Sequence record: KT184314.1
Length of the DNA: 64,000 nt
Direction: 5' to 3' (one strand)
From: Enterobacteria phage KhF2
Shown: piece after piece, positions 23,111-23,564 of the stretch
Layout of the letters: each line of letters opens with the position of its first letter
How positions within the stretch are numbered: the stretch's first letter is position 1
Position numbers and translations under genes: made by a program
Notes under the pieces: model-generated
What the model saw: only the letters and a program-made list of their open reading frames with translations
Database searches by the model: none
What the model was told of the DNA's origin: nothing

Positions 23111-23257
23111 TTAGATAACCACGTTCAAAGAGTCAATAAAAATTTTAAAAATATTTTTGGCAAAACTGTAATGAAACGGGTGCGCACGACTACCACAAAA
23201 CAGAACGCAAATCAAGAATTATTTTTCAATCCGCTACAAATTTTTCTATTGACTTTT

Positions 23258-23505
23258 GGGGAGAGGGGGAGTAAGAGGGGGAGAGGGGTTGGGCTGGCTG
23301 TCTATAAAAACCTACCTGCACAATTCTAAAATGATTTTTCTTGCCCGACCTGAGCGGGGTCTGCACGTTTTGAAAATGAAAAAGCTCTTTGGAGATTACC
23401 TGCACAGTTTGAAAATGAATTTTCTCTTTGGAGTTCAAAATTCTCTCTACAGATTTCTCTACAGAGATATACCTGCACAATTCTGAAATGAAAAAGCCCT
23501 CCTTA
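23258..23505. repeat. purine-rich tract (GGGGAGAGGGGGAGTAAGAGGGGGAGAGGGG) followed by 3-4 direct repeats of an about 35 bp unit (ACCTGCACA.TT.T.AAATGA...)
   Basis: Direct repeat copies near 23313, 23396 and 23471 with a partial copy near 23358; the short overlapping ORFs on both strands look spurious. Confidence 0.5.
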
Positions 23506-23564
23506 CCTGAAAAATTTACCAGATAAGAAAGGCTTAGTCTATTGTGAATATCCTACGAAGTTTC

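Follow-up and report, generated by a model that had tools for sequence, protein, structure and literature searches.

The 64,000-nucleotide stretch of Enterobacteria phage KhF2 analysed here (KT184314.1; hereafter the window) contains a gap of 520 base pairs (bp) without genes, at 23045-23564, in which four direct repeats with the core TCATTT-N7-GTGCA form an array. We interpret this array, with a probability of about 0.4, as a set of protein-binding sites on duplex DNA that would carry a transcription-boundary or regulatory nucleoprotein complex. Three parts of this interpretation are what we infer: that a protein binds, that the binder is of phage origin, and which process it serves. The array is of a known kind, that of arrays of direct-repeat protein-binding sites, and its motif is new. 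The original prediction had pointed out a purine tract and direct repeats at this place, both of which were confirmed by the sequence check and the motif statistics, and had suggested that they form a promoter cluster, an operator array or a leader RNA; "operator array", in the sense of protein-binding sites, is the best reading. The window belongs to Felixounavirus (Felix-O1-like myoviruses); over the 3 kb around the array it shares 99.8% identity with LF82P9 and 99.2% with XTG1. All genes from ~15.8 to 52.7 kb of the window are on the minus strand, and the gap is therefore read from right to left, from the stop codon of the gene for a 261-residue macro-domain protein to the ATG (23044) of a gene of 62 codons, the first of the small genes. 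Only on this minus-strand reading do the tract and the repeats lie upstream of the first small gene, as had been claimed. The order on the gene strand is terminator t13, repeats A to D, the purine tract, a conserved block, an AT-rich stretch with a promoter, and a leader hairpin with a ribosome-binding site. The repeats, with their scores in a weight matrix derived from the copies found in eight phages, are the following.

23470-23497, minus strand: repeat A, GCTTTTTCATTTCAGAATTGTGCAGGTA, 38.8 bits; its own T5 is the T-run of the terminator
23397-23424, minus strand: repeat B, GAAAATTCATTTTCAAACTGTGCAGGTA, 37.9 bits
23358-23385, minus strand: repeat C, GCTTTTTCATTTTCAAAACGTGCAGACC, 34.9 bits
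23313-23340, minus strand: repeat D, GAAAAATCATTTTAGAATTGTGCAGGTA, 33.0 bits

The core of each copy is flanked by A4 or T4. The conserved unit is ~28 nucleotides (nt) long and the copies start 45, 39 and 73 bp apart, so that they are interspersed and not head-to-tail; this is the reason why Tandem Repeats Finder reported none in the gap. The earlier description of 3-4 repeats of about 35 bp was thus right as to direct repeats, with the count now fixed at four and the unit shortened. The pattern CTGCACNNTTNNRAAATGA has four exact matches, all in the gap, and five matches in total at up to two mismatches, the fifth being a two-mismatch site at 43866; this number was attained by none of 100 dinucleotide shuffles. 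In the weight matrix the four copies score 33-39 bits, and every other site in the window, as in ~23 kb of the remainder of the closest genome, stays below 12 bits. A comparison of eight copies from two genera shows twelve positions without change (TCATTT, one A and GTGCA) and variation in the seven bases between. The A/T flank is uniform, either all-T or all-A, with no mixed case. The 3' flank is specific to the lineage (GTGCAGGTA vs GTGCATAGG), yet common to the copies inside one genome.

The gap is conserved across ~290 phage records, and none of the Ounavirinae-type sequences examined was without the array; they came from Felixounavirus, Suspvirus, Mooglevirus, Kolesnikvirus and two divergent metagenome contigs of 85-88 kb. 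The copies generally number three to five, in the same order and at similar spacing. In Felixounavirus, Suspvirus and Mooglevirus there are four, spaced 73-75, 39-41 and 45 bp. Erwinia phage M7 (Kolesnikvirus), whose similarity to the gap is confined to the repeats, has four copies at 37, 37 and 39 bp, and the divergent contigs have five copies by eye (L034) and two above 12 bits (L132). Three copies, at 75 and 45 bp, are present in ECML-1 (L189) and the Si3-like phages (L017/L051), in which repeat A directly follows the terminator and repeat B is missing; these phages have a divergent allele of the macro-domain gene and a different terminator hairpin. When contigs were collected via the macro protein, the array was found in 28 of the 28 that were Ounavirinae-type and in none of ~50 other phage contigs with a macro homologue. 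The link between array and macro gene is therefore a matter of synteny inside the subfamily and not a property of that gene. Conservation in the gap is highest in the repeats and the promoter hexamers; for the repeats it exceeds that of the downstream gene's start, where lineages differ. Absence of the repeats in relatives had been named beforehand as an observation that would speak against the prediction; they proved to be present.

This conservation bears on the possibility that the array has no dedicated function, being made of duplications of the 3' end of the terminator kept alike by recombination, or a linker for the exchange of modules. Repeat A does share the T-run of the terminator, the copy number ranges from 3 to 5, and downstream genes, the macro allele and the tract are swapped between phages precisely at the gap. 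We nevertheless regard this as improbable: the twelve positions stay fixed while the intervening bases drift, in lineages whose macro proteins are 35-45% identical, and the array was lost in none of the genomes examined. These two observations point to selection on the motif itself.

The array is not coding, not a set of sigma-70 promoters, not a structured RNA and not a genome terminus. No open reading frame over the gap keeps its frame and length among relatives. The longest have 40-130 codons and their starts and frames differ, so that the earlier view of these frames as artefacts was correct, and the repeat spacings of 73/75, 39/41 and 37 bp are not multiples of three, so that the motif shifts frame, which excludes a coding role. 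We scanned 22500-24000 and 15000-24500 for promoters, defined by a -35-like and a -10-like hexamer with 16-18 bp between them, the second and sixth bases of the -10 being A and T, and found no such pair in any repeat on either strand. A class of phage-specific promoters was rejected as well, the motif being used nowhere else at 12 bits or more and not reused upstream of other genes. RNAalifold on seven diverse gaps, both strands, gave compensatory changes for none of the pairs in which a repeat takes part, the terminator stem being the one coherent helix, and in Rfam searched at permissive E-values the best value was 0.18, with no match inside the gap. The genome terminus or packaging site is elsewhere, since the terminal repeat maps to 15190-15780, 7.5 kb off, and the geometry of M7 is alike.

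A role of the repeats as a promoter cluster, or as part of a leader RNA, that drives or controls the small genes is accordingly the reading to which we give the least credit. It has in its favour the location upstream of the first small gene, the hexamer TAGAAT in repeat D on the gene strand and TAAAAT- or GAAAAT-like hexamers on the other strand. These -10-like hexamers vary between copies and lineages, the motif does not recur elsewhere in the genome, neither strand shows covariation, and a conserved canonical promoter lies 175 bp downstream. The two proposals of a promoter cluster and of a leader RNA are therefore not supported.

Several features of the motif suggest that a protein recognises it as duplex DNA. 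An all-A and an all-T flank give the same groove shape in DNA and are unrelated in RNA, which argues for duplex DNA as the form recognised. Fixed elements one turn apart with a free AT-rich spacer argue for recognition by a protein, and a 3' flank that is specific to the lineage and common to the copies of one genome fits a co-evolving protein encoded by the phage. Known host regulators gave no good account of the copies: the MarA/SoxS/Rob box is matched poorly in the window (8-9 of 14 positions), and none of the CRP, IHF, Fis, OmpR, sigma-54 and sigma-E motifs, judged by eye, suits all copies. In a scan of 185,579 bacterial and archaeal genomes for two copies of the motif, no enterobacterial chromosome had two together; the scan gave 44 hits, none in a related taxon as judged by taxon with the sequences uninspected. 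The position of the array suggests a process at a border, since it is wedged between a terminator and the terminal small-gene module's first strong promoter. The other features of the gap and the gene before it are these.

23565-24350, minus strand: gene for the macro-domain protein (Pfam Macro), gene 13 of Felix O1
23494-23535, minus strand: intrinsic terminator t13 (Felix O1) of the macro-domain gene, an imperfect stem of 17 pairs followed by TTTTTCATTT
23258-23293, plus strand: purine tract of 36 nt, with 33 purines, 25 of them G
23205-23257, minus strand: conserved block AAAAGTCAA.AGAAAAATTTGTAG...AAAAATAATTCTTGA, from the conservation profile and alignments
23137-23165, minus strand: AT-rich upstream stretch, UP-element-like
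23108-23136, minus strand: predicted early promoter of sigma-70 type, -35 TTGACT at 23136-23131, spacer of 17 bp, -10 TAATAT at 23113-23108
23049-23105, minus strand: leader cassette of 57 bp with the hairpin GGGGAGGGAATGACCTTCCCC (23097-23077) and the ribosome-binding site GGAG (23056-23053), ahead of the ATG at 23044

In the mechanism that we propose, a sequence-specific protein, most likely encoded by the phage, would bind the four repeats. It would contact TCATTT and GTGCA, about one helical turn apart across seven AT-rich bases, and a stretch of four or five A or T ahead of each site would bend the DNA and make its minor groove narrower. With three to five such sites, all pointing the same way and ~37-45 bp apart, one nucleoprotein complex could then assemble. 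This complex would stand directly behind the terminator that closes a leftward unit of 29 kb (rIIA to the macro-domain gene); ~190 bp further on lies the first strong promoter of host type in the terminal small-gene module. There the complex may block or modulate read-through of the terminator, or it may adjust the early promoter region next to it at the switch away from early expression. The purine/pyrimidine mirror tract would be an accessory part of the border, loading Rho on escaped transcripts or forming a G-quadruplex or triplex on the DNA.

A number of points weigh against this interpretation. No binder was identified, and the neighbouring proteins gave no match to a DNA-binding family. 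The array overlaps no recognisable promoter, the nearest being 175-360 bp from its copies, an unusual arrangement for an operator. Lytic phages that rely on the host RNA polymerase throughout do not typically have a regulator with one target locus only, and a repeat array found at a single place is more often an origin or a packaging site. Nor does repeat A overlap the T-run of the terminator everywhere: M7 has a gap of 20 bp between them, and L034 has no obvious terminator by eye, no scan having been run. Since the tract is replaced in many Salmonella phages and the G-rich strand is there the opposite one, the part given to Rho is not general. Finally, the only expression data are coarse timings by reverse transcription PCR.

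Among the multi-site regulatory regions of lytic phages, the p4/p6 complex of phi29, between early and late promoters, is a close parallel. Like the array as we read it, it has about four protein sites, A-tract bending and a gap of ~200 bp between transcription units served by the host RNA polymerase. In phi29, however, p4 binds inverted repeats within reach of the promoters under its control, which they overlap; the array consists of direct repeats 175-360 bp from the nearest promoter, directly behind a terminator.

The same arrangement could instead serve a genome-level process, the array being a cis-acting site for a replication origin or for a pause in DNA entry of the T5 type and not for transcription; taken together, we hold such a role to be possible, if doubtful. 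The origin is the main rival to the proposed complex at the transcription border, and on its own it appears unlikely. According to this explanation the repeats would be iterons for an initiator, and the AT-rich stretch and the strong promoter would provide unwinding and transcriptional activation for a primase-helicase of the T7 type and a family-A polymerase. The replication module of the phage is indeed T7-like: its family-A DNA polymerase and its primase-helicase, a fusion of Toprim/DnaB type, are encoded by genes that diverge from ~52.8 kb.

48472-50463, minus strand, and 52916-55645, plus strand: replication module

The array is a unique locus of four repeats in the same orientation, in a large non-coding gap and conserved above the start of the downstream gene, and thus has the three or more direct repeats expected of iterons (3-5 in relatives). 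The least stable duplex of the gap, the 40-mer 23133-23172, lies ~140-150 bp from the repeats, with the strong promoter also ~150 bp off, and no origin of this group was found in the literature, of which the part on origins was covered partly. In M7, the GTGCA half reads YTATGCACR and agrees with 7 of the 8 specified positions of a DnaA box in all four copies. The likeness drops to 5 of 8 in the Escherichia coli phages; the window copies match TTATNCACA at that level, below the threshold of 8 of 9 for a cluster of DnaA boxes. Compared with the iterons of theta origins (the lambda origin with its O protein; RepA, RepE and Pi), the array is alike in its asymmetric repeats of 18-28 bp in one orientation at a single locus, in recognition elements one turn apart, and in having A/T tracts, an AT-rich stretch and a promoter nearby. 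It differs in a spacing of 37-45 bp with one double gap in place of the phased ~22 bp of classical iterons, and in that no unwinding element abuts the repeats, which adjoin the terminator and the GC-rich tract. Nor was an initiator homologue recognised: among the 30 proteins scanned, many of them without a family assignment, there was no Rep, O or DnaA-like family. A replisome of the T7-like type works without iterons in T7 itself. The GC skew has no turning point at the array and tracks the orientation of genes.

The second possibility of this kind would be a signal related to the genome end, for example a site at which DNA entry pauses as at the injection stop signal of T5, at the inner edge of the terminal early-gene module. 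The physical end is known: the 581-bp terminal repeat of Pr103Blw, defined by PhageTerm (PMC8303462), has a homologue at 15190-15780 with 89.5% identity; UAB_Phi87 has a repeat of 608 bp shown by Bal31 digestion (PMC4837284). The window therefore spans the junction of the physical genome ends, and the array is 6.7-8.1 kb from the physical end, or 7.6-9.2% of the genome. In M7, whose record includes a terminal repeat of 444 bp, it lies 7.7 kb in, at 9.1%. In the lineage of L034 the intervening genes are non-homologous and yet the distance to the main cluster of TTAACA repeats, which may be the homologue of the terminal repeat, is ~7.5 kb. In T5 the signal is also non-coding, conserved and made of repeats; it lies at 7.9% and has DnaA-like boxes (bioRxiv 10.1101/866236). 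In both cases the repeats mark the inner edge of a module of early genes at the genome terminus, 8-9% from the end, are better conserved than nearby genes and, in some members, include DnaA-box-like elements. We consider an entry pause very unlikely nonetheless. Two-step entry was never reported for these phages with contractile tails, and the distance changes with gene content, by over 1 kb, and is thus not precisely measured. Furthermore, the T5 region consists of ~1.2 kb of nested inverted repeats and palindromes within a terminal repeat of 10 kb, unlike the array and unlike the terminal repeats of 0.4-0.6 kb in Ounavirinae, and plain synteny would explain the conserved position.

The region 14900-15780 is dense in TTAACA and TGTTAAG in both orientations, many of them ~10-11 bp apart by eye, with up to 16 motifs per 600 bp vs ~1 expected; the terminal repeat of M7 is of the same make-up. 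In the two divergent contigs, about ten TTAACA motifs in the same orientation directly follow the array, before the promoter of the next gene (L034 600-770, L132 2350-2520).

The purine tract had been described as a run of 43 nt; the quoted string has 36. It is the most G-rich 36-mer of the window with its 25 G, the runner-up having 19 G and the maximum in 200 shuffles being 22 G, and it is the sole canonical G-quadruplex motif (four runs of at least three G, loops of at most 7) on either strand of the window. Positions 23258-23288 form a perfect homopurine mirror repeat of 14+14 around TAA. Judged from its letters, the tract should be capable of forming a G-quadruplex and a triplex (H-DNA). 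Read on the minus strand it is 48% C and 7% G, no other stretch of the transcribed strand in the 64 kb being as rich in C, and over ~55 nt it matches the C-rich, G-poor composition of a Rho loading (rut) site, for which some 60-80 nt of such RNA would be expected. If transcribed, it would be the best Rho-loading sequence of the window. The tract is like rut sites also in being untranslated and just downstream of an intrinsic terminator. Unlike them it is not present in all relatives, its mirror symmetry and G-quadruplex potential are no feature of rut sites, and its transcription needs read-through.

Among 29 distinct related gaps the tract was found in 13. Between the last repeat and the conserved block (23255-23310) there are two alleles of equal length. 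The mirror tract is that of the coliphages, Suspvirus and Mooglevirus, its core CTCTTACTC and an approximate mirror symmetry being retained in three genera. In a Salmonella-phage clade (loci L009, L011, L014 and others) its place is taken by an unrelated segment with the G-rich side on the gene strand, and the tract is therefore accessory. The distance from the last repeat to the promoter is constant at 189-199 bp, even where the intervening tract is unrelated sequence. A rightward promoter TTGACT-N17-TAAGAG leading into the G tract, as for an R-loop origin, was rejected, as its -10 is without the essential final T and the promoter scan did not contain it. Four Felixounavirus contigs from one metagenome (L111, L112, L118 and L122; IMG/VR 3300045988) stop 300-415 bp past the macro stop codon, in the tract or just beyond it. 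These ends are probably assembly breaks, due to strain variation or to the G-rich sequence, and not physical ends. More generally, we rejected metagenome contig ends near the array as physical ends, since they are breaks at the polymorphic tract or at a repeated hairpin cassette, present three times in one contig. For annotation, the G-rich mirror tract can be taken as a polymorphic spot where the four contigs stop, possibly through breaks of this kind.

Terminator t13 is listed in Table 2 of the Felix O1 genome paper (PMC3185647). At 23535-23494 a GC-containing hairpin is followed by a T-run, as expected of an intrinsic terminator, and the T-run enters repeat A. In the alignment the changes in the stem are one-sided only, C-G to U-G at two pairs, and the 3' arm and the T-run are invariant across genera. 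The conserved block is followed by TTGAyt-N17-TAnTnG (23170-23212) in all relatives from Escherichia, Salmonella, Citrobacter and Shigella. This site is promoter-like, but it has G in place of the essential last T of the -10 and was unreported by the promoter scan. In the promoter at 23136-23108 the hexamers and the 17-bp spacing are conserved in five genera while the spacer sequence is free; relatives (Suspvirus, Mooglevirus, Kolesnikvirus and the Felixounavirus of Salmonella) have TTGACT or TTGACC, 17 bp, and TAGTAT or TATATT. As judged from these hexamers, the control region of the first small gene is the sigma-70-type promoter, together with its AT-rich upstream stretch, the leader hairpin and the ribosome-binding site. 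The original prediction thus correctly placed that control region in the gap; the promoter sits at the extreme left edge of the range that it gave, and the tract and the repeats do not belong to it.

Copies of the leader cassette stand ahead of at least six other small genes of the minus strand (16484, 16822, 17415, 17990, 19535 and 20400), and a promoter-like site precedes five of these six as it does at 23049. Sites of the form TTGAC-17-TAnnnT were found ahead of the copies at 16822, 17990, 19535, 20400 and 23049. Many of the small early genes, though not all, have a promoter-like site and a leader cassette of their own, and thus do not form the single operon with one head of the earlier notion. 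The mobile promoter-stem-loop (PeSL) cassettes of T4-type phages are similar in that a strong host-type promoter, a hairpin and a ribosome-binding site are repeated before many small early genes. Their sequence is unrelated to the cassette of the gap, and the array and the tract are outside the repeated cassette. A second type of cassette, TTTACA-17-TAAAGT, occurs at 22172, 21792 and 18986.

In the literature on Felix-O1-like phages we found no published description of the array. The Felix O1 paper (PMC3185647) lists some longer direct repeats besides t13, the array not being among them, and states that the temporal control of transcription is not known, and the knockout screen in Bas63 (JohannRWettstein), a phage with the array at ~64.1-64.6 kb of MZ501086, was aimed at genes and not at the gap. 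Felix O1 and its relatives are used in Salmonella typing, in biocontrol and as chassis for engineering (e.g., Bas63). In this widely used group of phages, the array is a sharply defined, subfamily-wide element and a testable handle on regulation or replication, and contradicts nothing in established biology. Its twelve invariant bases could be mutated or used as bait for the binder, whose identity would reveal a new phage regulator or boundary mechanism, or else the origin or entry signal of the group. An origin or entry pause, if true, would fix the inner border of the hypervariable ~7-kb host-takeover module beside the terminal repeat. For annotation, the open reading frames called over the gap in several GenBank records can be treated as artefacts, and the small early genes as driven, by prediction, from individual promoter-leader cassettes.

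Base composition changes at the array (16000-23000 vs 23000-33000 of the window). In the terminal small-gene module the GC skew is weaker (-0.03 to -0.07 vs -0.11 to -0.15 in the upstream genes) and the AT skew stronger (-0.10 to -0.17 vs -0.04 to -0.09). Positions 94-108 of the window include a few N (94-96, 100, 103, 105 and 107-108).

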